64,000 nt of DNA, taken from contig JAANWX010000002.1 in NCBI GenBank assembly GCA_018263575.1, positions 7,552 to 71,551 of the forward strand, written 5' to 3'. The DNA comes from Chloroflexota bacterium. GTDB taxonomy: Bacteria > Chloroflexota > Anaerolineae > Anaerolineales > UBA11858. The position numbers were made by a program, and so were the translations under genes. Of the stretch, positions 713-64,000 are shown piece after piece (position 1 is the stretch's first letter; each line of letters starts with the position of its first letter). The notes under the pieces are model-generated. The model was not told the DNA's origin, made no database searches, and saw nothing but the letters and a program-made list of their open reading frames with translations.

Positions 713-789
713 TTATTAATCCTTAAACTGGAGACCTGCGGTCAGGGCTAAATGGCTGGTCAGAGACGCAGCCATAATCCAATATCCAA

Positions 790-1702: not shown

Positions 1703-1784
1703 TCTAACTCCTGCTGTTTAGCGAACCTGGACTTCAAAAGTCTCGGAGGTGCTTTTGGAGAAGTTTCACGTACTCTTTCGCAAC

Positions 1785-1822
1785 TCGCCACTTGCCACAT
1801 GCCACTTGCCACTTGCCACTCA
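1785..1822. repeat. Degenerate heptamer tandem array (CTTGCCA/CATGCCA)n
   Basis: tcgccacttgccacatgccacttgccacttgccactcac. The same unit family recurs at 7077..7135 and 59773..59807. Confidence 0.85.
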
Positions 1823-1831
1823 CACCTCTCT

Positions 1832-1883
1832 CGATGTTCCCAGGTCTCCCGACCGGGAACCACACCCGACCGAAGGTCTCCCA
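1832..1883 (+). repeat. About 52-bp structured dispersed repeat (family F), copy 1
   Basis: cgatgttcccaggtctcccgaccgggaaccacacccgaccgaaggtctccc. It contains the hairpins gttccc..gggaac and gacc-gaa-ggtc. A near-identical inverted copy lies at 6881..6933 and a diverged copy at 51324..51366. Confidence 0.85.
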
Positions 1884-3768: not shown

Positions 3769-3790
3769 AATAAATTCCTTGTTTAGTAGA

Positions 3791-3819
3791 TGGGGTGATG
3801 GGGTGATGAGGTGATGAGG
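3791..3819. repeat. Heptamer tandem array (GGTGATG)n
   Basis: tggggtgatggggtgatgaggtgatgagg, lying between the nadE stop and the pepF start. Confidence 0.8.
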
Positions 3820-3941
3820 TTTTTCTAAGCTAGAGCAGGAGGGGCACATCCTGCGGGCGGGGTATGGAGAATGGCCAAGCTCAGAATGAGCCGCCCTCAG
3901 AGCAGAAATTTGGGCATAACCCCGTGAATTTCTAGAGAACT

Positions 3942-4754: not shown

Positions 4755-4810
4755 GGGGGTGAGGTGATGAGTAATGAGTGATGAGTAATGAGTGATGGGG
4801 TGACGAGGGG
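4755..4810. repeat. Heptamer tandem array (GTGATGA/GTAATGA)n abutting the nadE start codon
   Basis: gggggtgaggtgatgagtaatgagtgatgagtaatgagtgatggggtgacgagggg. It fills the entire lgt-like/nadE gap. On the mRNA strand it is almost G-free and has no SD. Confidence 0.85.
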
Positions 4811-4815
4811 CGAGA

Positions 4816-6848: not shown

Positions 6849-6941
6849 ATAGGCGAGTGGGCGAGTGGTGGGTGGCGAGCTGGGAGACCTTCGGTCAGGT
6901 GTAGTTCCCGGTCGGGAGACCTGGGAACATCGTTGGCAAGG
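6849..6941. repeat. Composite inserted element: (GGCGAGT)n array plus an inverted family-F repeat, bracketed by a 25-bp direct duplication
   Basis: The direct repeats are 6824..6848 ggttttatgaaaaggggctttaggg and 6942..6966 agttttatgaaaaggagctttaggg (23/25 identical). Family-F copy 2 lies at 6881..6933. Confidence 0.8.
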
Positions 6942-7076
6942 AGTTTTATGAAAAGGAGCTTTAGGGGGGCGGGTGAATGATTCAATGGAAATTATACCGC
7001 TAGCAGGGATAGCGCTGGTCTTCGCGAAGCATAGCCTTGGGCTGCCCGACCGAGCGGCATAGTTCGGTGCAGTGTG

Positions 7077-7135
7077 CATGTGGCAAGTGGCATGTGGGCA
7101 TGTGAGCAAGTGGCATGTGGCGAGTAGGCGAGTTA
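7077..7135. repeat. Degenerate heptamer array (GTGGCAW/GTGGCGA)n upstream of nfeD
   Basis: catgtggcaagtggcatgtgggcatgtgagcaagtggcatgtggcgagtaggcgagttagg. Confidence 0.8.
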
Positions 7136-9666: not shown

Positions 9667-11022
<1,356 letters not shown>

Positions 11023-11281
11023 TCATCCCCGGGATTCGTGGGCCCCGACGAAGTTGATAAATACAAATAGAGGCTCTGGCCAAATTCCTGGTCAGGGCCT
11101 TTTCTGTCTCTAAGACCTGTTTACAATCCTTACATCCCGAGACTTGTCGTCCTGGGATTGGCCCTGGCCCGCTGGGGAGGCGCGCTCCTCCCCGGCTGTG
11201 GGTTTCCCCCTCATTACCGCCCTCTACCAGGCCGGAGCCGGGTTGGGCGCCGTCATCACCCTAACTCCTAACTCGCACCTC

Positions 11282-12307
11282 CTAACCCGCACCTCGCACC
11301 CCCTCCACAATCTCCCTCACCAATCCAGGCCCCCTATAAATCAGGCCCGTATACACCTGCACCAGACTGGCCCCGGCATCAAGCTTTTCCTGCACGTCCT
11401 CGGGAGAAGCGATCCCCCCCACGCCCACAATGGGCAACTCCCCTTTTGTACGCCGGTAAATTTCCCTCACCATCGCCGTGCTGCGTTGGCGTAACGGCGC
11501 GCCACTTAAGCCCCCATTCTCCTCTCGCACAGGAGAGCGTAGGCCCTGGCGCTTGACGGTGGTGTTCGTGGCGATCACCCCATCCATGCCCATATCCATA
11601 ACCGCGCCTAAAGCGTCGTCCAGTTCGGCATCGGTGAGATCGGGAGCCAATTTGACGAGGATCGGACGGGGGAACGGCGACCAGCGGCGGGCGGCGGCCA
11701 GTTGAGCTAGTAAATCCTCCAGCCTGTCGCGGGCTTGCAAGCGCCGTAACCCTACCGTGTTGGGCGAGGACACGTTTACGGCGAAATAATCAACCACGGG
11801 AGCAAACTTCTCCATCAGGGCGAGATAATCTCGCGCCGCTTCCGCGTTGGGCGTGTCTTTGTTTTTGCCAATATTGATACCTAGAATGACGGGGGATGGG
11901 GGACGGGGGGCGGAGGATAATTGGCTGAAAACGAAATCCGCGCCGCGACCGGGGAATCCCATGCGGTTGATCACGGCCCTTTCCTCAGGGATGCGAAATA
12001 TGCGCGGCCTGGGATTCCCGGCTTGGGGGCGGGGTGTGACCGTGCCTACCTCGATATGCCCAAATCCCAGCGTGGACAAACCCCTCCAGGCCAAGCCGTC
12101 CTTGTCGTATCCGGCCGCTAGTCCTACGGAATTGGGAAACGTCAAGCCCAAAACCTCCACGGAGGATTGATGCTGGGGTGCGAAAACTCTCCGCAAGGTA
12201 CCCCGCACCGGCGGTAAAGCCCCCGCAAGGCGCAGGAGACCCAGGGTCAGGTCGTGCGCGCGTTCGGGATCAAGTTGAAAGAGAAGGGGACGTAAAAGTT
12301 GGTACAT
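11282..12307 (-). CDS. pyrD: Dihydroorotate dehydrogenase (quinone), class 2
   Basis: N-terminus MYQLLRPLLFQLDPERAH and C-terminal GGIASPEDVQEKLDAGASLVQVYTGLIYRGPG. The last codons (EGVRGAG) run into a repeat array at 11259..11302. Confidence 0.9.
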   Translation of the reverse strand: MYQLLRPLLFQLDPERAHDLTLGLLRLAGALPPVRGTLRRVFAPQHQSSVEVLGLTFPNSVGLAAGYDKDGLAWRGLSTLGFGHIEVGTVTPRPQAGNPRPRIFRIPEERAVINRMGFPGRGADFVFSQLSSAPRPPSPVILGINIGKNKDTPNAEAARDYLALMEKFAPVVDYFAVNVSSPNTVGLRRLQARDRLEDLLAQLAAARRWSPFPRPILVKLAPDLTDAELDDALGAVMDMGMDGVIATNTTVKRQGLRSPVREENGGLSGAPLRQRSTAMVREIYRRTKGELPIVGVGGIASPEDVQEKLDAGASLVQVYTGLIYRGPGLVREIVEGVRGAG

Positions 12308-21237: not shown

Positions 21238-21377
21238 GCACGCCGTCCTGCCTGGTATGGCGGGATGTTTTCTAATCACACACGTTTCTTGACCTGACGG
21301 TGCGTGCCGCGAGGGAAATACTCTCCGGTGCCGAGCAGGGCTGATAGGAACGGAGGCTTAACGCAAAGGAGATTTGT

Positions 21378-42684: not shown

Positions 42685-42906
42685 GGGGAATCAGGAAACA
42701 GGGAATCAGGAAACCAGGGGATCAGGAAACCAGGGGATCAGGAAACAGGGGATCAGGAAACCAGGGAATCAGGAAACCAGGGAATCAGGAAACAGGGACT
42801 AGTGATTGGGGCCGGTGACTAGGGGACTGGGGGACTAGTGACTAGGAGACTACCAGACTAAAGACTACCAGACTAACGACTACCAGACTAACAACTACCA
42901 GACTAA
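42685..42906. repeat. Two abutting tandem arrays: 7 x about 16 bp (GGGRATCAGGAAACMA), then a (GACTACCA/GACTAAN)n octamer array
   Basis: ggggaatcaggaaaca gggaatcaggaaacca ggggatcaggaaacca ... then gactaggggactgggggactagtgactaggagactaccagactaaagactaccagactaac... Inverted versions of both arrays occur at 53479..53580 and 53749..53783. Confidence 0.9.
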
Positions 42907-50358: not shown

Positions 50359-50380
50359 TCATTCAGTCCCTGCCCTCACC

Positions 50381-51292: not shown

Positions 51293-51438
51293 AAGTTTTC
51301 TGCCCTCATCCCGATCGGCGAAGCGTCTCCCGACCGAGCCAGGGACCCGACCGGAGGTCTCCAATCCTCTGCCCTCACCCTAGCCCTCTCCCAGGGGGAG
51401 AGGGGACCCATCCCCTCATCACCTCGTTACCTCACCCC

Positions 51439-52353
51439 TCATCCCTCAACATACTCCAACCACTCCTCCGAGCGTTCCCCCCCACCCTTGACGGTTTGGA
51501 AAAAGGCCGTTTGCAGGGCTTCTGCCACCGGGCCACGCCGCCCGGCCCCAATCTGGCGGTGGTCGATGGTGCTTACGGGGGTGACTTCGGCCGCTGTCCC
51601 GCATACAAAGACCTCATCGGCAATGTAGAGCTGATCACGCGAGATGGGTTCTTCCACGACCGGGTAGCCCAGGTCATTCGCCAGGGTGAGAACGGAGTCA
51701 CGGGTGATGCCTTCTAAAATTGTCGCTCGCGGCGGGGTGTAGATCACGCCATCCCGCACCAGGAAGAGATTCTCCCCGCTGCATTCGGCCACGTAACCGG
51801 TCGGATCGAGCATGATGGCCTCGTCATAACCGGAACGCACGGCCAGGGTCTTGGCCAGCACCGAGTTGGCGTAATTCCCCGTGATTTTGGCCTTGGTCAT
51901 GGAGACGTTGATGTGGTGGCGGGTGAAGGAGGACACGGTCATGTGCACCCCATTTTCCAGGCCCTCATCGCCCAGGTAGGCGCCCCATTCCCAGGTCGAG
52001 ATGCTCACATGCGGGGTGTTGGCGTCCAGGTTGAGGGTGAAGGAACCGTCAAAATATAACAAGGGACGGATGTAGCAACCCTTGAAGCCATTGGCGCTAA
52101 TCGTCTCGTGGGAGGCCTTGCGCAAGTCTTCCACCGAATAGGGAAATTCCTGTACCCCTAGCACCTGGGCCGAGTCGACAAAGCGCTCTAAGTGCTCCCT
52201 GAGTCGAAAAACCGCCCCTCCTTGCGGCGTGTCATAAGCGCGAATCCCCTCAAAGGCCCCGTACCCGTAGTGCAGGGAAGGCGTGTTCACATGAATCTGG
52301 GCCTCTTCGTAAGGGACAAGTTCCCCGTCCATCCAAACATAATCTGATTTCAT
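51439..52353 (-). CDS. ilvE: Branched-chain amino acid aminotransferase
   Basis: Fold-type IV pattern (..GAFEGIRAY.., ..GITRDSV..). I prefer ATG 52353 (RBS aggag 8 nt upstream) over 52374, which lies inside the repeat array. Confidence 0.9.
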   Translation of the reverse strand: MKSDYVWMDGELVPYEEAQIHVNTPSLHYGYGAFEGIRAYDTPQGGAVFRLREHLERFVDSAQVLGVQEFPYSVEDLRKASHETISANGFKGCYIRPLLYFDGSFTLNLDANTPHVSISTWEWGAYLGDEGLENGVHMTVSSFTRHHINVSMTKAKITGNYANSVLAKTLAVRSGYDEAIMLDPTGYVAECSGENLFLVRDGVIYTPPRATILEGITRDSVLTLANDLGYPVVEEPISRDQLYIADEVFVCGTAAEVTPVSTIDHRQIGAGRRGPVAEALQTAFFQTVKGGGERSEEWLEYVEG

Positions 52354-52380
52354 TAAATTTCTCCTATCACTCATTACTCG

Positions 52381-53478
52381 TTACTCATCACTCATCCCCC
52401 GTACAATTTCCTTCGTCATCTCCGCCGTGTTGAGCGCGGATTCCCCTGGGGTGGCGAGGTCACCGGTGCGGCACCCGGCCTTCAGCGTCTCCCCGACGGC
52501 GGATTCCACGGCCCTGGCCTCCTGCTCCAATCCCAGAGAGTGGCGCAACAACATGGCCACGGAGAGAATGGTTCCGATGGGATTGGCGATTCTCTTCCCG
52601 GCGATGTCCGGCGCCGAACCGTGAATAGGCTCATACATGCCGCGTGGGTTTCCGTGCCGGTTCCGGGATTCTCCCAGGGAGGCGGACGGCAAATTGCCCA
52701 TCGACCCTGTCAGCACCGAGGCCTCGTCGGTGAGGATATCCCCAAACATGTTGGTCGTTACCATAACGTCGAAAGTGGCCGGGCGGGTGATCAGGTGCAT
52801 GGTGGCGGCGTCCACGAGCAGGGTCTCGAACTCGATTTGGGGATATTCCTCGGCTACCTGGGTGACCGTCTGCCGCCACAGCCGCGAGGTTTCCAGGACG
52901 TTGGCCTTATCCACCGAGGTAACTTTTCCGCGCCGCTCCCCGGCCAGTTGAAAGGCCAGGTGGGCGATGCGGCGCACTTCACTCTCAGTGTAGGCCATCG
53001 TGTCCACCGCTTGGGTTTCACCGTTGACCTGGCGGCGCTCCCTCGGCCGGCCAAAGTAAATCCCCCCCGTCAGCTCGCGCACGACCAACAAATCCACCTC
53101 GGGGAGCAAATCCGGGCGCAAGGGGGAGGCCGAGAGCAACTCCGCGTGGGGCTTAACCGGGCGCAAATTGGCAAAAAGCTCCAGCCCTTTGCGCAGCCCC
53201 AGCAGGCCCTGTTCCGGGCGGACGGGAGCGGTGGGATCATCCCACTTGGGACCGCCCACGGCGCCCAACAGGATGGCATCCGCCTGGCGGCAAGCGGCCA
53301 ACGTCTCTTCGGGGAGCGGGTCTCCCTCCGCGTCAATGGCCGCCCCGCCGACAAGATGGGTCTCCATTTTAAAAGTATGATCAAAAATATCTGCTACAGC
53401 TTCTAAAACTTCTTGCCCGGCGGCGACAACTTCGCTTCCGATGCCGTCTCCGGGGAGTAATATGATGGTTGGGTTCAT
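52381..53478 (-). CDS. leuB: 3-isopropylmalate dehydrogenase
   Basis: [12 protein letters not shown] and [12 protein letters not shown] motifs. There is no SD upstream, because the octamer array abuts the ATG. Confidence 0.95.
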
Positions 53479-53580
53479 AGTCTTTAGTCTGGTAGTCTGG
53501 TAGTCTTTAGTCTGGTAGTCTCGTAGTCTGGTAGTCTGTAGTCTTTAGTCTGGTAGTCCGGTAGTCTCCTAGTCACTAGT
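53479..53580. repeat. Octamer tandem array (CTGGTAGT/CTTTAGT)n abutting the leuB start
   Basis: agtctttagtctggtagtctggtagtctttagtctggtagtctcgtagtctggtagtctgtagtctttagtctggtagtccggtagtctcctagtcactagt. This is the reverse complement of the 42840..42906 array type. Confidence 0.9.
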
Positions 53581-53732
53581 ATATGGCGGTGTAAATTCAT
53601 TGAAGGTTAATATTTGCGCTCAAGGTGCGTTGCACTCCTGTTTTCACGGTGTGCACCCATGGTGGGGAGTGCATTGCACCTGGGAACCCCCAAAGGATTT
53701 CCGCTGAGTCGTACTAGTCCCTCAATCCCTAG

Positions 53733-55340
53733 TCACTGATTCCTGCTTCCCTGTTCCCTGTTCCCTGTTCCCTGTTCCCTGTTTCCCTGCTCCTTAAGCA
53801 ACGCATGCTCCATACTATCGGCCAAGGCGCGCCAACTGGCTTCGATGATGTTCGTGCTGGCCCCGACTGTGCTCCAGCGATCCTTGCCGTTTTTGGTATC
53901 GATCAACACGCGCACATTGGCGGCCGTGCCGCTTTCGCTGTCCAAAATGCGCACTTTGTAGTCATCCAGCCGAATCTCCTTCAGGCGCGGGTACACGTCC
54001 ACCAGGGCCTTGCGCAGGGCCGCGTCCAGGGCATTGACCGGGCCATTACCCTCCGCCGCTGTGTGAAATACGCGATCGCCAATACGCACCTTGACCGTGG
54101 CCTCGGCAAATACCCCGCGACCCTGGCGGTGCTCCACCACGACCATAAAATCGATTAGCTCGAAAGGTTTTTGGTAATGGGGTTGATTGCGACGCACCAT
54201 CAAATTAACGGAGGCTTCTGCGCTCTCGAATGTAAATCCCTGCGCCTCCAACTCTTTGATCTCTTTCACCACCGCCCGCGCTTGTTCCCGGTTCACGTCC
54301 AGCCCAAATTCGTGGGCCTTGTCGATCACGTTCCCGCGCCCGGAAAGTTCCGAAACCAGGGTGCGCCGGTGATTGCCCACCAGGGCGGGATCAATGTGCT
54401 GGTAAGCGTCTTCGTTCTTGAGCACCGCCGCCACATGAATGCCCCCCTTATGCGCGAAGGCTTTTTTCCCCACAAAGGGCAGGTAGGGATTGGGCGTCTG
54501 GTTGGCAACTTCGTCCACATAATACGAGAGATCGGCCAGCCCGGCCAGGTTTTCTGGGGGGATGCAGGGGAGGCCCATCTTCAATTGCAGGTTGGGGATG
54601 ATGGTGCACAGATTGGCGTTGCCCACCCGTTCCCCGTACCCGTTGACCGTCCCCTGGACGTGAACTGCCCCGGCGTGGACGGCCGCCAGCGTGTTCGCCG
54701 TCCCGTTGCCCCCATCGTTGTGGGCGTGAACCCCCAGGGGAGTGTCGAGTTCCTGGCCGACTTGGCCGGTGATCTCCCCAATCTCCCAGGGCAGCGACCC
54801 GCCGTTGGTATCGCAAAGCACCAAGACATCCGCCCCGGCCTCAGCCGCGGCCCGGAGCGTGCCCAGCGCGTAATCGGGATTGGCCTTATAACCGTCGAAG
54901 AAATGTTCCGCGTCGTAGACGACTTCTTTGCCATGGGCCTGCATGTAGGCCACGCTCTCTTCGATCATGGCCAAATTTTCTTCCGGGGTTGTTTCCAGCA
55001 CATCGTGGACGTGCAGTTCCCAGCTTTTCCCAACCAGGGTGACCACAGGCGTCCCCGCCGCGAGCAAGGCCTGGAGATTAGCGTCGTCTTCCGGGAGAGT
55101 GTCCTTCCGTCGCGTGGACCCAAAAGCGGCAATTTGGGCGTTTTCCAGGTCCAGGGAGCGGGCGCGTTCGAAGAACTCAGCATCCTTGGGGTTGGAACCC
55201 GGCCATCCCCCCTCGATGGTGTCGATGCCAAACTGGTCCAGACGCCGGGCAATCTTCAACTTATCGTTCACAGAAAGCGAGATACCCTCGCTCTGTGTAC
55301 CGTCTCGGAGGGTGGTGTCGTAGATAGAAATGTTAGACAT
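53733..55340 (-). CDS. cimA: (R)-citramalate synthase (LeuA-family, CimA-type)
   Basis: MSNISIYDTTLRDGTQSEGISLSVNDKLKIARRLDQFGIDTIEGGWPGSNPKD, at about 535 aa with a C-terminal LeuA_dimer-like domain. The tail EQGNREQGTGNREQGSRNQ is encoded by the (CCCTGTT)5 array at 53749..53783. Confidence 0.85.
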   Translation of the reverse strand: MSNISIYDTTLRDGTQSEGISLSVNDKLKIARRLDQFGIDTIEGGWPGSNPKDAEFFERARSLDLENAQIAAFGSTRRKDTLPEDDANLQALLAAGTPVVTLVGKSWELHVHDVLETTPEENLAMIEESVAYMQAHGKEVVYDAEHFFDGYKANPDYALGTLRAAAEAGADVLVLCDTNGGSLPWEIGEITGQVGQELDTPLGVHAHNDGGNGTANTLAAVHAGAVHVQGTVNGYGERVGNANLCTIIPNLQLKMGLPCIPPENLAGLADLSYYVDEVANQTPNPYLPFVGKKAFAHKGGIHVAAVLKNEDAYQHIDPALVGNHRRTLVSELSGRGNVIDKAHEFGLDVNREQARAVVKEIKELEAQGFTFESAEASVNLMVRRNQPHYQKPFELIDFMVVVEHRQGRGVFAEATVKVRIGDRVFHTAAEGNGPVNALDAALRKALVDVYPRLKEIRLDDYKVRILDSESGTAANVRVLIDTKNGKDRWSTVGASTNIIEASWRALADSMEHALLKEQGNREQGTGNREQGSRNQ

Positions 55341-55350
55341 GGAGTTCTCC

Positions 55351-55437
55351 TGGTGGGTTGGTGGACTGGTAAATTGGTGGATTGGTCTAATCGGTGGACT
55401 GGTAAATTGGTGGATCGGTATATTGGTCTAATTGGTC
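55351..55437. repeat. Degenerate octamer array (TTGGTGGA/CTGGTAAA)n upstream of cimA
   Basis: tggtgggttggtggactggtaaattggtggattggtctaatcggtggactggtaaattggtggatcggtatattggtctaattggtc. Confidence 0.9.
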
Positions 55438-55646
55438 CCGGTAAGTCGATTGGAAATCGACGCTGTTCTGCAAAACCGACCTTGCCCAAAGGGCACGCAC
55501 AGCGCGTCGGTTGATCTAATCCGCGTAGGCGGATTTTGCGCACCGGCGGCGAATTCGATTCGCCCGGTAAGTCGATTGGAAATCGACGCTGTTCCACGAA
55601 ACCGACCTGCGTCGGTTGATTCTAATCCGCGTAGGCGGATTTCGCC
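55437..55646. repeat. Tandem duplication of an 85-105-bp multi-hairpin element
   Basis: Copy A is 55437..55540 and copy B is 55563..55646. Both contain cccggtaa-gtcgatt-gga-aatcgac-gctgttc...aaaccgacc..gcgtcggttgat.ctaatccgc-gtag-gcggatt. Copy A carries an extra module ttgcccaaagggcacgcacag. Confidence 0.85.
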
Positions 55647-55674
55647 TTACTCATTACTCATTACTCATTACTCA

Positions 55675-56262
55675 TCACTCTTCACTCCCTTCAAAAGCAG
55701 CAATCTCCGCTTCGTGCTTGAGCAAGTACCCCAATTGATCGATGCCCTCGAGCAGACACGTTTTGCTAAAGGGATCAAGGGGGAAAGCGGCCTCCGTCCC
55801 ATCTGGGAGTTTCACCGTTTGGGCGGGGAGGTCGATGCGCACCTCCAGGGAGGGAGCAGAGTCCAGCGCGGCGGCCAGTTTGGCGTGGGTTTCCGTGTCC
55901 ACCGTCACCGGGAGCAGGCCGTTCTTAAGGGCGTTGTTATAAAAAATATCGGCGAAGGAGGTGGCAAGGATGGCCCGGATCCCCCATCCGGCCAATGCCC
56001 AGGGAGCGTGCTCCCGGGAAGATCCGCAGCCAAAATTATCACCCGCCAACAGAATTTGCGCCTCCGCGTATTGGGGCTGGTTGAGGGGAAAATCCGGGTT
56101 TGGATCCCCATCGTCCAGATACTGCCACCCGGCAAACAACCCTTCGGCCAGACCGGCCTTATCGGTCACTTTCAGGTAGCGGGCGGGGATGATTTGGTCG
56201 GTGTCGATATCGTCCCGGAGGAGGGGGATTACGGGGGAGGTTAGGGTTTTGAATGGGTTCAT
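55675..56262 (-). CDS. leuD: 3-isopropylmalate dehydratase small subunit
   Basis: 195 aa, ..GDNFGCGSSREHAPWAL... There is no SD upstream, because an array abuts the ATG. Confidence 0.95.
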   Translation of the reverse strand: MNPFKTLTSPVIPLLRDDIDTDQIIPARYLKVTDKAGLAEGLFAGWQYLDDGDPNPDFPLNQPQYAEAQILLAGDNFGCGSSREHAPWALAGWGIRAILATSFADIFYNNALKNGLLPVTVDTETHAKLAAALDSAPSLEVRIDLPAQTVKLPDGTEAAFPLDPFSKTCLLEGIDQLGYLLKHEAEIAAFEGSEE

Positions 56263-56328
56263 TAGTCGAGTAGTTGGTAGTCGAGTAGTCGTTAGTCGGG
56301 TAGTCGTTAGTCGTTAGTCTGGTAGTCA
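56263..56328. repeat. Hexa/heptamer array (TAGTCG/TAGTCGT)n abutting the leuD start
   Basis: tagtcgagtagttggtagtcgagtagtcgttagtcgggtagtcgttagtcgttagtctggtagtc. Confidence 0.9.
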
Positions 56329-56477
56329 GGGGATAGCGAAGGTTTTGCCAGAGGCACGCCTACGGCGTAACTTAGCGCAGTGGTTCGGTGGGGAGATGGT
56401 TCGTTCCTCACCACAGGCCTTCACTATCGTGAGTTGGTAGTCAGGTAAATCACGCATCACTCGTTACTCATTACTCA

Positions 56478-57899
56478 TTACTCTTCACGTTTCACGTCTC
56501 CACACATCACTCTCGGATCTATGACCTTTCCAGCCACAGCCGACGCCGCCGCGGTGAGAGGACTGGCCAAAAAGGTGCGCCCTCCCGGCCCTTGGCGGCT
56601 TTCGAAGTTGCGGTTGCTGGTGCTGACCGCGTATTGGCCAGGGGATAGTTGGTCCCCGTTCATGGCCAGGCACATGCTGCAACCGGCGTGGCGCCATCCC
56701 GCGCCCGCTTGCCGGAAGACCTCATCAAGGCCCTCGGCCTCAGCCTTTCGGCGGACGTTCCCAGAACCGGGGACGACCAACATGCGCACCCCTTCGGCGA
56801 CTTTTCGCCCGCGCAGCAAGTCAGCCGCGGCGCGTAAATCGTTGAGGCGGCCGTTGGTGCAGCTCCCCAGGAAAACAACATCAACCGGATGGCCTTGCAA
56901 GGGCTTTCCTGGCGCCAAGTCCATGTAGCGGAGGGTTTTTTCCAGTGCCGCGCGCCGGTCCGGGTCACTTTCCCTCGCCGGGGTGGGGATGGGTTGGCGG
57001 ATCGGCCCGCCCATGGCCGGGTTGGTGCCGTAGGTGATCATCGGTTCCAGCGCGGCAGCGTCCAGGGAGATTGTTTGGTCGTAGCTGGCCCCCGGGTCGG
57101 AGGAGAGATTCCGCCAACGGTCCAGGGATTCTTCCCAGGCTTCCCCCACCGGCGCGGAGGGACGTCCCCGCAGATAGGCGAAGGTGGTCTCGTCGGGAGC
57201 GACCATCCCCGCCCGCGCCCCGGCCTCGATGCTCATGTTGCACAGCGTCATGCGCGATTCCATATCCAGGGCACGCACGGCCGGGCCGGTGAACTCGATC
57301 ACGTGCCCGGTCCCGCCGCCCACCCCAATCTCAGCGATGAGGGCCAGAATCATATCTTTGGCAGTGACTCCGGCGCCGAGTTGGCCTTCGAAATGAACGC
57401 GCATGGTCTTGGGACGATTTTGGAGCAGGCTTTGGGTGGCCAGGACGTGTTCCACCTCGCTGGTGCCAATCCCAAAGGCCAAGGCCCCGAAAGCGCCGTG
57501 GGTGGAGGTGTGGCTGTCGCCGCAGACGATGGTCATCCCCGGTTGAGTCAGGCCCTGCTCCGGCCCCACAACATGGACAATGCCGCGCTGGGGGTCATTC
57601 AGGTCGTAGAGGTGAATCCCAAAATCCCGGCAATTGGCCTGTAACTGGCGGATTTGCTTTATACCCTGTTCATCCATGGCCGCCAGAGAGAGTTCGATGG
57701 TGGGGGTGACGTGATCCATGGTCGCCACGGTCTGCTCCGGGCGGCGAGTGGGCAGCCCCTTTTCCCGCAAGCCGTTGAACGCCTGCGGCGAGGTGACCTC
57801 GTGAACCAGGTGCAGGTCAATATAAAGCACAGCCGGGGAATCGGGTTCCTGGAGGACTACGTGAGCGTCCCAGATTTTTTCAAAGAGTGTTTTTGGCAT
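56478..57899 (-). CDS. leuC: 3-isopropylmalate dehydratase large subunit
   Basis: [27 protein letters not shown] 57899..57897 overlaps the TGA of the upstream micro-ORF (UGAUG). The track alternative is GTG at 57902. Confidence 0.95.
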
Positions 57900-58096
57900 C
57901 ACTTCGTCAACTCAGACATGCTCCACTTCTCGGGAAAAGTGCGCGGTTTAGGAAATTTTTCCATCGCGCCATTTCCATTGGATTTCGCCGGCGTGATGAG
58001 GTGCTTGTCGGAGATCATCTCCGCCGTGTTCCACTTTGCGGGATAGGTGCGGGGTTTGGGGAATTTTTCAAATACATACTCAGTTTTTTTAGACAT
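57899..58096 (-). CDS. 65-aa protein of unknown function with two EKFPKPRT(Y/F)P.KW repeats, embedded in the leu operon
   Basis: SD AAGGAG begins immediately after the leuA TAA, 8 nt before the ATG, and the stop overlaps the leuC ATG. The two repeat copies differ mostly at synonymous third positions. Confidence 0.6.
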
Positions 58097-58107
58097 TTTT
58101 CTTCTCC

Positions 58108-59745
58108 TTAAACAACAATTTCAGCTTCCTGCTCAAGATACTCTCGAGCAGCAATTAACTTGTTCAACCCGGATAGATAAGCCTTGGCGCTGGCAACGAT
58201 GATGTCGGTATCGGCCCCGTAACCGCCAAAGGATCGGGCGTGGCTGCGTCCGCTTTGGGGCGAGGTGCGGCGGGGGATGGAACCGTTTTCGGGCTTGAGG
58301 CGCACGGTCACTTCCCCGATGGCGTCAATCCCCTCGGTGACGGCGTTGACGCTGAACTCCAGCAAGGTGTTGGGGACTTGGAGGACGTCGTCGATGGCCT
58401 TGTAGGCCGCGTCCACGGGACCGGTGCCGACCGAGGCCTGAACGTACGTTTCCCCTTCCGGGCCATGGAGGCGCACCGTGGCGGTGGGAAGCCCCATCGT
58501 CCCGCAGGCCACCTGTAAACCGGCCAGGCTGTAAATCTGCTTGGCCTGGTACATTTGATCTTCCACCAGCACTTCCAGGTCGGCGTCGGTGATGGTCTTC
58601 TTCTTGTCGGCCACTTGCTTGAAACGCTGGAAAGCTTCCGCCAACTCGTCCTCGCCTAGGTCGAATCCCAACTCCTCCAACCGGGTCTTGAGGGCGTGAC
58701 GCCCAGAGTGTTTGCCCAGCACCAACCGAGAGCGGCTCAGCCCCACCGTGGCGGGGAGCATGATCTCGTAGGTGTTGTTATTCTTCAACATGCCATCCTG
58801 GTGAATGCCCGCCTCGTGGGCAAAAGCGTTGGCGCCGACGATGGCCTTATTGGGCTGCACCGGCATCCCCGTGTAATTGGAGATCATGTGGCTGATCCGG
58901 GTGATTTGTTTGGTGTCGATGCCCGTCTCCAGGGCGTAAACCGGGTGGCGGGTGTGGAGGGCCATGACCACTTCCTCGAGGGCAGTGTTCCCGGCCCGTT
59001 CCCCCAGACCATTGACGGTGACTTCGGCCTGGCGTGCCCCGGCCATGATCCCGGCCAGGGTGTTGGCGGTGGCCAAGCCCAGGTCGTTGTGGCAATGCAC
59101 CGAGACGGTCACTTCCTCGATGCCGGGGACGTTGGCCATGATCCCGGCAATGAGATCGCGGAACTCATCCGGGGTGGTGTACCCGACCGTGTCGGGGATG
59201 TTGAGGGTGGTGGCCCCGGCCCGGATGGCGGCTTCCAGTACCCGGTACAAGAAAGCTGGTTGGCTGCGGCCGGCGTCCTCGGGCGAGAACTCCACGTCAG
59301 CGCACAAGGCGTGGGCGTAGGCCACCATCTTGGCGACGCGGGCCAGGACTTCTTCCGGGGACATGCCCAGCTTGTGCTCCATGTGGATGGGTGAGGTCGC
59401 CAAGAAGGTGTGGATGCGGGGACTGGCGGCTGGTTGGACGGCTTCCCAGGCGGCGTCGATGTCCGCTTCGGTGGCCCGGGCCAGGCCGCAGATGATGGGG
59501 GGAGGGGATTCCCCCGCCTCGCCCCCCCGTGGCGTGTTGCCCACCTCCTGCGCGATGCGGTAGACGCCCTGGAAATCGTCCGGGGAGGCCACTGGAAAAC
59601 CGGCCTCGATGATGTCCACCCCCAAACGCGCCAGGCCCCGGGCGATCTCCAACTTTTCGGGAGAGGTCAGGGTCGCGCCGGGAGATTGTTCTCCATCGCG
59701 TAAGGTGGTATCAAAAATGCGGACGTAGTTGTTAGGTTTTGTCAT
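58108..59745 (-). CDS. leuA: 2-isopropylmalate synthase
   Basis: [14 protein letters not shown] and [13 protein letters not shown] motifs, plus a C-terminal LeuA regulatory domain. Confidence 0.95.
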
Positions 59746-59772
59746 AGTTTTTTATGTGTGAGTGGCAACGAG

Positions 59773-59807
59773 CATGTGGCATGTGGCATGTGGCATGTGG
59801 CATGTGG
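59773..59807. repeat. Five perfect tandem copies of CATGTGG
   Basis: catgtgg x5 (hand count), flanked by degenerate copies, lying between the ilvC stop and the leuA start. Confidence 0.95.
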
Positions 59808-59820
59808 TATGTTTTACTCT

Positions 59821-60834
59821 TCACTCTCCCGGCTTAATCGTCACCGGTTCTACAAAAGGCATCATGGAGCGTAGTTCCGCGCCAACTTTTTCGATGGTCT
59901 CTTTTTGCTCTTTTGCACGCTGCTCGTTGAACCAGGGGTGGCCTTGTTGGTTTTCTTCAATCCAAATTTCGGCATAAGTGCCGTCTTGAATGTCGCTTAG
60001 GAGTTGGCGCATGGTGGCGCGGGTTTCATCGGTGATGATCTTAGAACCGGCGTAATAATCACCGTGTTCGGCGGTGTCAGAGACGGAGTAGCGCATGTAG
60101 TTCAGGCCGCCGCGATACATGAGGTCAACGATAAGCTTGAGTTCGTGCATGCACTCGAAATAAGCCAGTTCAGGCTGATAACCAGCCTCGGTGAGGGTTT
60201 CGAATCCGGCTTTGACGAGGGAGGAAACGCCACCGCAGAGTACAGCTTGCTCCCCAAAGAGGTCGGTTTCGGTTTCTTCGGCGAAGGTGGTTTGCACGAC
60301 TCCAGCGCGCGTGGCGCCAATCCCCCAGGCGTAAGCGATGGCGTTTTCTTTCGCGCTTCCGTTGGCATCTTGGTGAACGCCTAAAAGGGAGGGGGTTCCC
60401 CCGCCTTCCGTGAAAATCTCACGGACACGGTGCCCGGGTGCCTTGGGAGCAACCATGCTAACGTCCACATTTTCGGGCGGGGTAATTGTTCCGTAGCGGA
60501 TGTTGAATCCGTGGGCGAACATGAGGGTTTTTCCCGCGCTCAGGTGTGGTGCAATGTGCTCGGTATAAACTTGTGGTTGGCGCGTGTCAGGGATAAGCAC
60601 CATGATCGTATCTGCCCAGGCTGAGGCTTCGGCTACGGTACATACTTCTAAGCCCTCCGTTTCTGCCTTTTTCCAGGATTTACTGCCTTCTCGCAAACCG
60701 ACCCGCACGTCCACGCCGTTGTCATGCAGGTTAAGACTGTGGGCGTGTCCTTGAGAGCCGTATCCGAGCACGGCGACTTTTTTGTTCTTGATCAGGTCGG
60801 GGTTAGCGTCTTTGTCGTAATAGATAGTTGCCAT
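59821..60834 (-). CDS. ilvC: Ketol-acid reductoisomerase (class I)
   Basis: [21 protein letters not shown]. 337 aa. Confidence 0.95.
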
Positions 60835-60846
60835 TTTTAGTTCCTT

Positions 60847-61018
60847 GGTTTGGTGGGTTGGTAGGTTGGTAGATTGGGAAATTGGGAGATTGGGAAACTG
60901 GTGGATTGGTAGATTGGAAGACTGGTGGGTTGGGAAATTGGGAAATTGGCAGATCGGTTCCTAACTCGCAATTCGCAGCTCGCAACTCGTCACTCCTCAC
61001 TCCTCACTCCTCACTCTC
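60847..61018. repeat. Long degenerate array (TTGGKWRR octamers) followed by (CTCGCAA)n/(CACTCCT)n heptamers
   Basis: ggtttggtgggttggtaggttggtagattgggaaattgggagattgggaaactggtggattggtagattggaagactggtgggttgggaaattgggaaattggcag...ctaactcgcaattcgcagctcgcaactcgtcactcctcactcctcactcctcactc. The last part supplies the ilvN tail and stop. Confidence 0.9.
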
Positions 61019-61533
61019 CCCCCATTGGCGCCGGGGGTGTGGCGAATGCCGACGTGGTCACCGCGCATCATGACCACTCGTCCTGTGCGCACCAGTTCCA
61101 GGATGCCGAGGGGGCGCAATAACTCGACCAAGCCTTCGATTTTGTCTTCCGTGCCGGTGATTTCCACGATCACGGAATCGGGCGCGACATCGACGATGCT
61201 GGCCCGAAAGATGGAGGCCAAGTTGGCGATCTCGGTCCGCTGTTCGGGCGTGGCTTTGACCTTGATGAGGACTAAATCTCGCATCACGGCCGGTTGGTTG
61301 GTGACGTCTTGGACGTCGATGACGTTGACCAACTTATAAAGGTTGGCCTCTACGGTGCGGGCGTCAACATTTTCGCTGTCCATGACGATGGTCATGCGCG
61401 AGATGTCGGAACGATCCGTGTGCCCGACGTTGAGGGATTCGATGTTGAAATTCCGGCGGCGAAACAGCGAGGCGATGCGGTTGAGGACGCCGGGGCGGTT
61501 TTCCATAAGTGCAAATACAGTTTGTTGTTGCAT
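60997..61533 (-). CDS. ilvN: Acetolactate synthase small (regulatory) subunit
   Basis: ACT domain, MQQQTVFALMENRPGVLNRIASLFRRRNFNIESL. The tail GGRVRSEE is repeat-encoded. Confidence 0.9.
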   Translation of the reverse strand: MQQQTVFALMENRPGVLNRIASLFRRRNFNIESLNVGHTDRSDISRMTIVMDSENVDARTVEANLYKLVNVIDVQDVTNQPAVMRDLVLIKVKATPEQRTEIANLASIFRASIVDVAPDSVIVEITGTEDKIEGLVELLRPLGILELVRTGRVVMMRGDHVGIRHTPGANGGRVRSEE

Positions 61534-61658
61534 GTTTTCTCCTTCACTTTTAAGCTGGACGCTGATGAACGCTGAGAACGCGGATTCTTTTTTTGGTTTT
61601 TCTCCGTGCTTGTCCGTGCTCCTCTGCGTCCTAAATGAGACTGTTGGGGAGCGATAAG

Positions 61659-63356
61659 TCAGCTTGCTGGTTCCCGGGTGATAGGGCGGCGGATCATGGC
61701 ATCCAGATCTGCGCCAGAAGGGACCAGGGGGTAAACGTTGTCTTCTTTTTCGACGACGAATTCGAGTACCACGGGACCTGGGGTTTCCTGGGCAAACTTA
61801 ATGGTGGGGGAAACTTCATCCGGGGTTGTAGCTCGTTTTGCGGGAACGCCATGGGCTTCGGCGATTTTCACGAAATCCGGCCCGGTCAGGGCTGTGGATG
61901 CGTAGCGTTTGTCCATGAATAATTCTTGCCATTGGCGCACCATACCCAAATAACTGTTGTTGAGAATGGCGACCTTGATGTTGGCTCCTTCTTGGACGGC
62001 GGTGGAGAGTTCAGCTTGGCTCATTTGGAAGCTGCCATCACCATCGATCAGCCAGACGGCTTTGTCTTGGTGGGCAAACCAGCTCCCAATGGCGGCCGGC
62101 AAACCAAAGCCCATCGTTCCCGTTCCGCCAGAGGTGATCAACCGGTAGGGTTTGTCAAAACGATAATATTGAGCCGCCCACATCTGGTGTTGTCCCACGC
62201 CGGTGGCCAGGATGGAGTCGCCTCCGGTGGCTTTCCACAAAGCGCGCACGGCATGAGCGGCGTGCAGCTTGCCATTAACGGGCTGGGACATGATGCTGCG
62301 CTCTTCCGTTTCTTGTCGCCAGGCGGCAATTTGCGTTTTCCAATCCTCGTGTTCGGATTCCTCCACCAGGGGGATTAAATCAGTGAGCACCGTCTTGAGA
62401 TCGCCCATGAGGGGAACATCCACTTCCACGTTCTTGTGTACCTCGGAAGGGTCAATTTCGATGTGGATTTTGCGCGCGCGGGGGGCATAGGTGCGCAGTT
62501 TTCCCGTCACCCGATCGTCGAAGCGCATCCCATAGGCCAACAGCAGGTCGGCGTTTTGGATGGCGTTGTTGCAAAAGGCTTCCCCGTGCATGCCCATCAT
62601 GCCCAGGCTGAGGGGATGGGAGGCGGGGAGGGCGCCCAGTCCCAGCAGAGTCATGGCGACGGGCGTTTGGGTCTTGGTGGCAAAGATCTCGAGCTCTTTC
62701 ATAGCTCCCGACATGAGCACGCCGTGTCCCGCCAGGATGACGGGGCGTTCGGCTTTTTCGATCAGCTTGACCGCTTCCGCCAGATCCTTTTCGGGGGCGT
62801 GTTGGGGAGGTTGGTACCCGGGGAGGGAAATTTCATCAGGGTATTCGAACTCAGTTTCTTCGAATTGGGCGTTCTTGCAAAAATCGATCAACACAGGGCC
62901 GGGTCGTCCGCTGCGGGCGATGTGAAAGGCTTCCCGTACGACCTGAGCGACCTCGCTGGCACTGGTGACCAGATAATTGTGCTTGGTAATCGGCAAGGTG
63001 ACGCCGGTGACATCGACCTCCTGAAAAGCGTCCCCGCCGATGAGGTGGGCGGGAACCTGCCCCGTGATGCACACAATGGGCGAGGAATCCATCATAGCGG
63101 TGGCGATGCCGGTGACCAGGTTCGTGGCCCCTGGGCCGGAGGTAGCCAGCGCCACGCCCACCCGACCAGAGGCCCGCGCGTAACCATCGGCCATGTGCGC
63201 CGCGCCCTGCTCGTGGCGGGGAAGGACGTGGTGAACCGGGTATTTCAACATGGCGTCGTAGACGGGCATAATGGCCCCGCCGGGATAACCAAAAACGGTA
63301 TCAACCTCTTCGCGTAATAAACATTCCCATAAAATTTCTGCTCCAGTTTTTTTCAT
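61659..63356 (-). CDS. ilvB: Acetolactate synthase large (catalytic) subunit
   Basis: The start is moved to MKKTGAEILWECLLREEVDTVFGYPGGAIMP (RBS aaaggagag). The ThDP motif GTMGFGLPAAIG...IDGDGSFQM is present. Confidence 0.95.
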   Translation of the reverse strand: MKKTGAEILWECLLREEVDTVFGYPGGAIMPVYDAMLKYPVHHVLPRHEQGAAHMADGYARASGRVGVALATSGPGATNLVTGIATAMMDSSPIVCITGQVPAHLIGGDAFQEVDVTGVTLPITKHNYLVTSASEVAQVVREAFHIARSGRPGPVLIDFCKNAQFEETEFEYPDEISLPGYQPPQHAPEKDLAEAVKLIEKAERPVILAGHGVLMSGAMKELEIFATKTQTPVAMTLLGLGALPASHPLSLGMMGMHGEAFCNNAIQNADLLLAYGMRFDDRVTGKLRTYAPRARKIHIEIDPSEVHKNVEVDVPLMGDLKTVLTDLIPLVEESEHEDWKTQIAAWRQETEERSIMSQPVNGKLHAAHAVRALWKATGGDSILATGVGQHQMWAAQYYRFDKPYRLITSGGTGTMGFGLPAAIGSWFAHQDKAVWLIDGDGSFQMSQAELSTAVQEGANIKVAILNNSYLGMVRQWQELFMDKRYASTALTGPDFVKIAEAHGVPAKRATTPDEVSPTIKFAQETPGPVVLEFVVEKEDNVYPLVPSGADLDAMIRRPITREPAS

Positions 63357-63373
63357 GTTCTCTCCTTTGATTT

Positions 63374-63469
63374 TGGTATGTTGGTGGACTGGTAAACTGG
63401 TAAATTGGTGGATTGGTTCCCAGTTTCCCGATATACCAATCACCAATCTACCGACCTATACCAATACCG
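63374..63469. repeat. Imperfect long inverted repeat made of TTGGT/ACCAA units between ilvD and ilvB
   Basis: The left arm is ggtatgttggtggactggtaaactggtaaattggtggattggtt. The right arm is accaatcaccaatctaccgacctataccaatacc, roughly the reverse complement with indels. Confidence 0.75.
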
Positions 63470-64000
63470 CTCCTTGATCGGCGCTGGTCACCATGCGGGC
63501 GTAACGCCGGAGCCAAGAGCTATTTGTGCGTGGCTCGAAGGGGGGTAAGGCGTTTAGGCGTTCTTGAATTTCTTGGTCTGACAAACGTACATTGATTGCT
63601 CGAGTTTCGAGATCGATTTCGACCACGTCTCCGTCTTGCAGGGCGGCGATGGGGCCCCGGGCGGCGGCTTCCGGGCTGACGTGCCCCACACAGGCGCCCC
63701 GCGTCCCGCCGGAAAAACGCCCATCAGTGATGAGGGCCACTTCTTCCCCCAATCCCATGCCCATGATGGCCGAGGTGGGGGAAAGCATCTCTTGCATGCC
63801 GGGTCCGCCGCGCGGCCCTTCGTAGCGGATGACGACGACCTCCCCCGGCTGGACTTCCCCATCCAGAATCCCGCGCATGGCGTCTTCCTGGCTCTCATAG
63901 ATGCGGGCGGGGCCGGCGTGTGTCCGCATGGAGGGGGCCACCCCGCCGGTCTTGATCACGGCCCCATCCGGGGCGAGGTTGCCGAAGAGGATGGCTAATC
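63456..64000 (-). CDS. ilvD: Dihydroxy-acid dehydratase, C-terminal part (N-terminus beyond the window)
   Basis: ..[20 protein letters not shown].., [15 protein letters not shown] and [14 protein letters not shown]. The frame is open to position 64000. Confidence 0.9.

Follow-up and report, generated by a model that had tools for sequence, protein, structure and literature searches.

Heptamer and octamer repeat arrays in the spacers of an Anaerolineales ilv-leu-pheA operon are oriented with transcription and change quickly among relatives

Short tandemly repeated repetitive sequences (STRRs) are reportedly a feature of heterocystous cyanobacteria, a description attributed to Mazel et al. in 1990. 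Their canonical units are CCCCAGT, TTGGTCA and CAACAGT, and what arrays of this type do has been an open question since 1990. Here, we describe arrays of the same kind in a 64-kb stretch of DNA (64,000 nt of contig JAANWX010000002.1; hereafter "the window", which is the whole of the host genome sequence analyzed) from an uncultured Anaerolineales bacterium, where they lie between the genes of an ilv-leu-pheA operon. The closest LeuC match (83%) comes from a metagenome-assembled genome (MAG) labelled Anaerolineales, and IlvC is 100% identical to that of an NCBI "Chloroflexi bacterium" MAG. With their 7- or 8-nt units, the arrays belong to the long simple-sequence repeats (SSRs) of the cyanobacterial STRR kind; they draw on a handful of genome-wide unit families and are lineage-specific, patchy, fast-changing and dispensable for the operon. 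We favor, with a probability of roughly 55%, a combined reading in which they are slippage-prone SSRs kept in a translation-neutral orientation, the copies in front of start codons serving as leaders that permit initiation independent of a Shine-Dalgarno (SD) sequence.

Several heptamer systems provide points of comparison. PMC4692102 summarizes the heptanucleotide STRRs of Calothrix PCC 7601, the over-representation of heptamers among bacterial SSRs, and the long-SSR class of Mrazek et al. 2007. The same study (Rehm et al. 2015; PMC4692102) reports GGGAATC repeats in Xanthomonas and GGGGAYT repeats in Nostoc that are about 90% intergenic, vary between close species and follow a rule of position: the G-rich strand is coding within 0–50 bp after a stop codon (overlap with the stop included) and non-coding within 0–50 bp before a start codon. 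TAACTGA heptamers occur in marine Beggiatoaceae, some cyanobacteria and Bacteroidetes, where a translational role was proposed (MacGregor 2015; PMC4679880), and deleting heptamer repeats affects expression in Nostoc (bioRxiv 10.1101/2022.06.06.494920). An earlier note on this DNA knew of no description of such arrays as systematic operon punctuation in a Chloroflexota-like genome. A literature search on STRR or heptamer arrays in Anaerolineae, Herpetosiphon and Roseiflexus turned up no description for Anaerolineae and only one for the phylum, the (GATAGRA)n satellites of Chloroflexus aurantiacus (Subirana & Messeguer 2019; PMC6749651), which resemble the present arrays in phylum, heptamer derivation and genome-wide scatter and differ in belonging to the class Chloroflexia and to a single family. 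The position and orientation rule has its precedent in the Xanthomonas and Nostoc heptamers (PMC4692102), and SD-less starts behind heptamers have theirs in Beggiatoaceae (PMC4679880); the additions made here are the comparison of a single operon with and without arrays, and an explanation of the orientation rule through C-free start and stop codons.

The operon occupies positions 50381–64000 of the minus strand and reads ilvD (3′ part), ilvB, ilvN, ilvC, leuA, a 65-codon open reading frame (ORF), leuC, leuD, cimA, leuB, ilvE and pheA (prephenate dehydratase), gene identities and order being verified by NCBIfam and Pfam (E-values 1e-56 to 1e-231). Arrays were detected with Tandem Repeats Finder (TRF), counting periods of 7 or 8 nt and their multiples (14–16 and 21–24 nt) and requiring a score of at least 40 for merged arrays. 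Overall, 15 merged period-7/8 arrays were found in the window, compared to 0 in each of 50 dinucleotide-preserving shuffles. A census of intergenic versus genic space, proposed in the earlier note and run here on the window, assigned 11.6% of intergenic but only 0.65% of coding bases to arrays (18-fold); 16 of 23 arrays were intergenic (binomial p = 3e-10), while the coding ones were mostly in-frame protein repeats of period 15, 21 or 24. Arrays stood at 8 of the 11 operon junctions and in 5 of the 30 other co-directional gaps (Fisher p = 0.0014), with operon specificity judged inside the window only, as the comparison loci are all ilv-leu loci. The claim that every intercistronic gap is filled was thus too broad: the ilvB–ilvN junction (125 nt, good SD) and the leuA–leuC interval, which includes the small ORF and shows a strong SD and an overlap of stop and start, are array-free, and both were missing from that claim's own list of gaps.

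Within these bounds, the description of the arrays stood up well. TRF recovered period-7/8 repeats or their multiples at each operon position listed earlier, as well as members of the same families in both orientations outside the operon (1783, 3789, 4764, 7071, 11259 and 42686–42906), and the five-fold perfect runs of CATGTGG (59773–59807) and CCCTGTT (53749–53783) are exact. A supposed TAGTCG hexamer array is present, but its unit is a 7/8-mer, TAGTCGG / TAGTCGAG. At least six unit families are spread over 21 window sites, and in the operon region seven arrays have period 7 and three have period 8. The arrays show the properties of long SSRs, i.e., a unit in the 5–11-nt range repeated head to tail at least three times beyond composition expectation, predominance of heptamers over other long periods, and variation of copy number and unit among close relatives. 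The likeness to STRRs, suggested earlier, extends to tandem heptamers in several families per genome, to many dispersed, mostly intergenic or intercistronic sites in both orientations, and to one strand being G-rich. In contrast to STRRs, the host is from Anaerolineales rather than the heterocystous Nostocales, octamers are as prominent as heptamers, and the units, compared by eye with the canonical sequences, are different ones. Nor did any TRF consensus in the window equal TAACTGA or one of its rotations.

That the arrays are real follows from an independent Logan contig, L081 (comparison loci and contigs from relatives carry L numbers), which is 99.7% identical to the window over 59776–63791 (4 kb) with no indel and reproduces the ilvD–ilvB and ilvN–ilvC arrays unchanged, base for base, before terminating within the CATGTGG array. 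Similar arrays also occur in dozens of independent MAGs, long-read contigs among them. Assemblers do struggle with such sequence: the L081 and L162 contigs both break off in arrays, and a scaffold N-run falls within an array of L163 (the ilvN–ilvC gap). Arrays thus systematically fragment the short-read MAGs of these lineages, which is a practical concern. Copy numbers taken from short-read MAGs may accordingly be collapsed. The longest arrays seen, in L152 (464–842), reach 135 and 241 nt, with 19 and 34 copies. We consider it most unlikely that the arrays are short-read assembly artefacts, an objection that L081 counters directly, or that they act as G-quadruplex or other non-B-DNA regulators. 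GGG tracts are present in AACAGGG x5 and in the array after the ilvE stop, and GGGAATC and GGGGAYT repeats form G-quadruplexes (PMC4692102); however, the four-GGG-tract pattern does not hold here, with GGG confined to AACAGGG x5 and parts of the 51409 and 42686 arrays, and since most units have only GG or a single G, quadruplex formation cannot be general.

Array-bearing gaps share a layout in the mRNA sense: a C-poor, stop-rich array at the stop codon (units TGAGTAA, GGAGTGA and GAGGGATGA), a centre of unique sequence or a hairpin, and a G-poor, C/A-rich array before the next start (units CCAATYTC, GACTACCA, CCACATG and CATCACT; Table 1). Pre-start arrays consist of 28% A, 39% C, 10% G and 23% T, so that their earlier description as C/A-rich is borne out. 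A repeat unit contains the stop codon of ilvN, leuC, leuD, leuB and ilvE, and the last residues are therefore array-encoded (..RVRSEE*, KREE*, GSEE*, MSDE*). Similarly, because the AACAGGG unit has no stop codon, the cimA ORF reads through its array with a tail of ~18 aa; the CimA hidden Markov model match stops at residue 518 of 535.

By curated count, 11 of the 12 window arrays within 30 nt of a stop have G>C in the mRNA sense, and 8 of the 9 that lie no farther than 30 nt from a start or SD have C>G. The exceptions to the rule are the CCACATG array, which in its 75-nt gap is both post-stop and pre-start, and the 7071 array. An automatic count with a crude classification, covering the window and 35 further loci (34 labelled Chloroflexota plus the Chthonomonadaceae locus L080), gave 18 G-rich and 5 C-rich post-stop arrays compared to 10 and 23 pre-start arrays (Fisher p = 9e-4); with the window removed, the figures were 13/4 and 7/18, and the bias was present on both strands. 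Behind the plus-strand gene that ends at 6846 lies an array that is G-rich on the plus strand, and behind minus-strand genes lie arrays that are C-rich on it; as genes on both strands obey the rule, orientation tracks transcription and not the chromosome strand. An orientation flip at 42817–42906 was ruled out: unit composition shifts there from TAGTCTGG to TAGTCCCC within a single orientation.

Start codons (ATG, GTG, TTG) and stop codons (TAA, TAG, TGA) all lack C. Pre-start arrays hold 6 start triplets in the sense direction versus 59 if inverted, and post-stop arrays hold 53 stop triplets versus 9 if inverted. We infer that the orientation rule arises because start and stop codons are C-free while 7- and 8-nt units rotate through the three frames, which would provide a simple, unifying account of the orientation bias of Xanthomonas and Nostoc as well. 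The rule itself is identical to that of Rehm et al. (2015), with the G-rich strand coding after stops and non-coding before starts, and the window shares with those repeats the intergenic bias, the variation in length and sequence between close species and, at 42686–42798, GGGAATCA-containing units. Unlike in Xanthomonas and Nostoc, many window families have no GGG tracts, and the arrays fill successive operon junctions and abut start codons.

Table 1. Repeat arrays and dispersed elements in the window. Units are given in the mRNA sense of the gene concerned; "TRF" marks operon arrays recovered by Tandem Repeats Finder, with its limits where noted.
Coordinates	Strand	Units or element	Context
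63421..63470	-	TTGGTRRA-family G/U-rich octamers	Over last codons and stop of ilvD; 5′ arm of inverted array pair
63374..63420	-	TYYACCAR C/A-rich octamers	3′ arm of hairpin; followed by SD AAAGGAGAG and ilvB ATG 63356; TRF 63388-63417
60963..61016	-	GGAGTGA x4, then CGAGTTG-type heptamers	Encode ilvN end (..RVRSEE*) and stop; TRF
60850..60958	-	~13 C/A-rich octamers CCAATYTM / CCAMCYAC	ilvC leader; followed by weak SD AAGGA, ATG 60834; TRF
59762..59812	-	CCACATG x5 perfect, plus variants	75-nt ilvC–leuA gap; leuA ATG 59745, no SD; TRF 59772-59812
56455..56488	-	(A/T)GAGTAA, CGAGTGA post-stop heptamers	leuC stop within unit (..KREE*); TRF
56263..56327	-	GACTAMC(N) heptamers/octamers	Adjoin leuD ATG 56262; no SD; TRF
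55647..55687	-	TGAGTAA x4, plus variants	Across leuD stop (..GSEE*); TRF
55351..55427	-	C/A-rich 16-mers CCAATTTACCAGTCCA (two octamers)	Upstream of cimA SD CAGGAGAA, ATG 55340; TRF
53726..53793	-	AACAGGG x5 perfect, plus variants	Inside cimA 3′ end; TRF 53742-53793
53478..53574	-	~11 octamers CCAGACTA / AAGACTA	Adjoin leuB ATG 53478; no SD; TRF 53485-53574
52366..52396	-	GAGTRAY heptamers	Across leuB stop (..MSDE*), into ilvE SD TAGGAGA; ATG 52353; TRF
51409..51448	-	G-rich 7/8-mers GAGGGRTGA, GGTGAGG	Across ilvE stop; TRF
42686..42906	-	TGGTAGTCT octamers after stop, then TGGTTTCCTGATTCCC x7 towards next start	Largest non-operon cluster; between acyl-CoA dehydrogenase-like and Clp ATPase genes
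1783..1820	-	GGCAAGT / GGCATGT heptamers	Oligopeptidase 3′ region; family of the 59762 array, opposite sense
3789..3820	-	ACCYCATC octamers x4	Upstream of oligopeptidase F; weak SD AAGGA, ATG 3768
4764..4797	-	CATCACTCATTACT (2 x 7) array	Before nadE ATG 4754; no SD, no G in -40 to -1
6852..6868	+	GGCGAGTG x2	Directly after stop of plus-strand gene
7071..7125	+	GTGGCAT / GTGGCAA heptamers, G-rich	10 nt before strong SD of NfeD gene
11259..11304	-	Convergent-gene array, G-rich	Overlaps dihydroorotate dehydrogenase stop
729-746 (+), 1865-1882 (-), 6882-6899 (+), 51346-51363 (-)		GGGAGACCTTCGGTCRGG element copies	Looks like a small structured REP/MITE-like repeat

Next, we considered the start sites. 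Homology and sequence place the true starts of ilvB, ilvE (both in Table 1) and pheA (ATG 51292) downstream of the longest-ORF starts, and likewise corrected those of nadE and the oligopeptidase gene outside the operon, where gene starts are otherwise mechanical ORF calls. SDs are clear for ilvB, ilvN, cimA, ilvE and the small ORF and weak for ilvC, whereas inspection upstream of leuA, leuD, leuB and nadE yielded no readable SD, all SD calls being made without sight of the host anti-SD sequence. An SD is kept between array and ATG for ilvB, cimA, ilvE and, weakly, ilvC. The situation at leuD, leuB, nadE and leuA resembles that of TAACTGA, in which intergenic arrays of fixed orientation lie a few nt upstream of starts and the downstream genes are mostly SD-less; there, however, a single unit is present in 2–6 copies with no paired post-stop arrays described, while the window arrays are longer and belong to multiple families.

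The longest-ORF starts of five minus-strand genes (1951–3849, 3942–4961, 50381–51364, 51439–52374 and 61659–63446) run up through C/A-rich arrays, because the G-poor strand is nearly free of stop codons. Automatic gene callers likely give these genes false N-terminal extensions, so that ORF callers are misled at both ends: by spurious extensions of ilvB, pheA, ilvE, nadE and the oligopeptidase gene, and by array-encoded C-terminal tails.

Array leaders were weakly structured, in line with the earlier suggestion of unstructured C/A-rich leaders, for which minimum free energies (MFEs) of −1 to −3 kcal/mol over 68–126 nt (leuA excepted) provide physical backing. Specifically, the leaders of ilvC (−1.1 kcal/mol over 126 nt, z +1.4), leuB (−3.2 over 102 nt, z +2.4) and cimA (−1.0 over 90 nt) were less structured than dinucleotide shuffles (z +1.4 to +2.4), while those of leuD (−3.0 kcal/mol over 68 nt, z −1.95) and leuA (−7.4 over 75 nt, z +0.5) were not. 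Across start regions (−40 to +20), the median MFE was −1.45 kcal/mol for array-preceded genes versus −6.1 for the other 42 genes (Mann–Whitney p = 4e-5). Absence of local structure reportedly permits translation of SD-less mRNAs (PMC3121790), and C/A-rich elements enhance initiation (PMC3879156). The enterobacterial enhancers and standby sites (PMC3879156; PMC5934652, PMC3121790) are likewise G-poor, C/A-rich, unstructured and located upstream of the start, and promote initiation without a need for exact spacing; they differ in being short and non-repetitive, in acting with an SD and in being targeted by the sRNA GcvB, and any enhancer activity of the window leaders is putative.

The one strongly structured gap of the window is ilvD–ilvB, where two arrays in inverted orientation form a hairpin of −39.6 kcal/mol (z −4.4); similar inverted pairs were found in L001, L008 and L068. 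General pairing between post-stop and pre-start arrays was rejected, as all other window gaps had z ≥ −0.7 with the arrays unpaired. Searched against Rfam at gathering thresholds, the whole window gave one tRNA and nothing else, and the operon at E ≤ 1 gave only two sub-threshold CRISPR-DR28 hits, on the first hairpin of the leuD–cimA element described below; the gaps are therefore unexplained by a known RNA family. In a promoter and terminator scan of 50300–64000, hits did not exceed those expected from shuffles and none on the minus strand fell within a gap, so the gaps are unlike borders of transcription units. Three further candidates were rejected. The units are 7–8 nt long and contiguous, not the 23–50-nt repeats with unique spacers of a CRISPR (clustered regularly interspaced short palindromic repeat) array. 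They are direct repeats without self-complementarity, unlike elements of the repetitive extragenic palindrome (REP) or miniature inverted-repeat transposable element (MITE) type, and only opposite-orientation pairs such as ilvD–ilvB form hairpins. Finally, contingency SSRs for phase variation do not fit intercistronic arrays whose neighbors are housekeeping biosynthesis genes, with no promoter-like sites above chance.

Comparison with relatives shows how quickly the arrays turn over. Three lineages about equally distant from each other (82–92% protein identity) stand in marked contrast. Gene order is unchanged in L001 and L164, but their gaps measure 19–52 nt, SDs are normal, leuC and leuD overlap, and arrays are confined to two or three sites, which contradicts the view of the arrays as conserved operon punctuation. 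L163, on the other side, combines wide gaps with arrays between ilvN and ilvC and between ilvC and leuA, and its ilvC–leuA array belongs to the CACTTGC / CCACATG family found there in the window. Together, these loci make a natural experiment, an 11-gene operon with arrays (window, L163, L008, L068, L152) and without (L001, L164). Copy-number variation in orthologous gaps, which the earlier note had proposed to look for, was seen twice: L162 (IlvC 97%) carries the window's pre-ilvC octamer family with a different order and number of units, and the arrays common to L001 and L164, whose proteins are 95–97% identical, contain different numbers of copies. Behind the ilvC stop, L162 moreover carries a GAGTRAN array, whereas the window shows two units only. 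These comparisons back the earlier proposal of slipped-strand expansion.

Farther afield, L008 and L068 have arrays in 6 of 11 gaps each, with units unrelated to the window's, and the leuD–cimA gap of L152 holds 19 copies of AGGATGA followed by 34 of ATTCTSC. Counted by gap, 21 of 29 other Chloroflexota ilv-leu loci are array-free; where arrays occur in these loci, period 7 was found 28 times, period 8 eight times and every other period three times or fewer. In other phyla, the 463 gaps examined contained only 3 arrays, and a Chthonomonadaceae genome accounts for two of these. The Chthonomonadaceae locus L080 (Armatimonadota) is the sole non-Chloroflexota locus of the genome collection rich in heptamer arrays (AATCCAA, GATTTTG and TTCTGTT, at 23–54, 2202–2231, 7084–7115, 9891–9922, 14190–14228 and 21252–21282), and those at gene ends obey the orientation rule. 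An exact-protein look-up of LeuD returned no record, and a metagenome scan with LeuD gave nothing above 68% identity, which makes it of no use for strain-level comparison, although it provided the array-bearing L152, L084 and L108.

Relatives also qualify the earlier claim that arrays replace the SD. The leuC/leuD overlap and the leuB SD (AAAGGA) are present in L001 and L164 and lost in the window. By contrast, leuA is SD-less in array-free relatives too, hence its array did not replace an SD; the claim stands for the absence of an SD at leuA, leuD, leuB and nadE, but not for replacement at leuA. Overall, an array seems to have taken the place of the SD or of translational coupling in three or four essential genes.

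Under the reading we favor, slipped-strand mispairing, probably together with recombination between arrays, would make arrays grow, shrink and turn over, and they would settle in the non-coding spacers of co-transcribed genes, where selection on translation would pick the surviving strand. The C-poor strand would be tolerated only directly after a gene, where it supplies stops in all three frames, since 7 and 8 are not multiples of 3, and sometimes the gene's own stop. The G-poor, C/A-rich strand would be tolerated directly before a gene, as it brings no false starts, SD-like runs or secondary structure. Pre-start arrays could thereby become long, structure-free landing or standby leaders that allow SD-independent initiation at leuA, leuD, leuB and nadE, and may have replaced the ancestral leuC/leuD coupling at leuD and the SD at leuB. 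This predicts that inverting a leader array would create false starts and structure and reduce translation.

Several points weigh against this reading. SD-less initiation at these starts is deduced only from the need for LeuD, LeuB and LeuA, and the CCACATG leader of leuA holds five ATGs. One clear pre-start exception, the 7071 array, is G-rich ahead of a start. The unit families GGAATCA, CTGGTAAA, GAGTAAT and CACTTGC recur across loci and species ~85% identical in protein, which pure local slippage does not predict and which hints at sequence-specific selection, recombination or spreading. Related families at the same gaps (ilvN–ilvC and ilvC–leuA) in the window, L162 and L163 could reflect long-term retention. 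Neutral filling does not obviously explain why the operon is array-rich while many long gaps are empty, and simple slippage leaves the sharp preference for periods 7–8 unexplained. Regarding the leuA leader (59746–59820, minus strand), we further observed ATGs in all three frames, one of which, by eye, may open an out-of-frame upstream ORF ending about 12 nt inside leuA, a possible termination-reinitiation arrangement.

Some of these points would be expected if the arrays were instead positively selected cis-acting RNA modules, the C/A-rich ones acting as enhancers or standby sites that uncouple cistrons, and the G-rich ones and inverted pairs as stabilizing or processing hairpins that set segmental mRNA stability. 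This main rival is possible, albeit clearly less probable than slippage under a translational filter. The same succession of stop, G-rich array, optional hairpin, C-rich array and start is built from unrelated units in the window, L008, L068 and L152, one family persists in corresponding gaps of the window, L162 and L163, and arrays are more frequent in the operon than in other gaps. The low structure of the leaders and the strong hairpins of inverted pairs (in ilvD–ilvB, L068 and L008) fit such modules, as do the C/A-rich elements proven to be enhancers in enterics (PMC3879156) and the state of leuD, which has neither an SD nor the leuC/leuD overlap kept in L001 and L164, though LeuCD needs both subunits. 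However, the equally related L001 and L164 run the operon without arrays, as do the 21 array-free Chloroflexota loci, near-identical relatives differ in copy number and unit order, purifying selection alone accounts for the orientation bias, and several array-preceded genes retain an SD. A more specific version, which we regard as doubtful, is that C/A-rich arrays are a convergent selected device for SD-independent initiation in long operons of several Chloroflexota lineages, with complementary G/U-rich arrays at 3′ ends able to mask the landing pads in cis (as in ilvD–ilvB) or in trans. If true, the arrays would constitute a rapidly evolvable layer of post-transcriptional control and, by extension, suggest a function for cyanobacterial STRRs.

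The preference for periods 7 and 8 over 5, 6 and 9–11 would also be accounted for if the arrays were multivalent platforms for a protein reading ~7-nt registers, with a global post-transcriptional or chromosomal effect; candidates would be a cold-shock, S1-domain or CsrA-like protein on the RNA side, or a nucleoid-associated protein on the DNA side. A few unit families are common to loci and related species, the study of TAACTGA repeats put forward S1, Csp and Csr proteins, CspB being one that binds heptamer registers (PMC4679880), and a heptamer-binding factor was postulated in Nostoc (bioRxiv 10.1101/2022.06.06.494920). We nevertheless consider this improbable: one genome holds several unrelated families, no candidate protein was identified here, and binding at the DNA level gives no reason to expect opposite orientations at stops and starts. 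Because units are unrelated between lineages of the same architecture, such a protein would need lineage-specific specificity or none.

Arrays might alternatively have been left behind or carried along by a process of mobility or recombination, e.g., MITE-like elements or inter-array gene conversion, that spreads ready-made cassettes in place of in-situ slippage, which could explain the same families at many loci. Consistent with this, arrays adjoin dispersed structured elements. A ~50-nt element, GGGAGACCTTCGGTCRGG-N12-CGGTCGGGAGAC, has 4 copies in the window versus 0.13 expected (Table 1), always intergenic and next to G-rich post-stop arrays, and the leuD–cimA gap (55440–55646, minus strand) holds two tandem ~105-nt elements with three hairpins each (AATCCGCCTACGCGGATT, CAACCGAC..GTCGGTT and GTCGATTTCCAATCGAC). 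In addition, leuD (56262) and leuB (53478), both on the minus strand, stand behind the same GACTA family and both start with ATGAACCCA (MNP), through chance or possibly recombination. Yet neither terminal inverted repeats nor target duplications nor a transposase came to light, array borders fade into degenerate units as slippage predicts, and Rehm et al. found no mobile-element association in Xanthomonas or Nostoc (PMC4692102), which makes this process still less probable than a protein platform.

Two further features of ilv-leu loci emerged from the comparison. Relatives have one or two small leader ORFs ahead of ilvD or ilvB in which Ile, Leu and Val abound (e.g., MNIFTHFIVLIGLLVLVLLLGIEN...), each followed by a hairpin and a T-run (L001, about 2200–2840; L164, upstream of ilvD; L008, 2659–2919; L068, 526–810), an arrangement that reads as classical leader-peptide attenuation in Anaerolineae; the window stops short of this region. 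Second, the small ORF between leuA and leuC is conserved, with 65–66 codons, in the window (57899–58096, minus strand, its TGA overlapping the leuC start as GTGATG), L001 (9760–9960, plus strand), L163 (7201–7401) and L164 (12821–13021), the latter two with a called 66-aa gene. It has no Pfam match, and combines its strong SD with a motif, E(K/T)FPxPRTxPxKW, that is duplicated internally.

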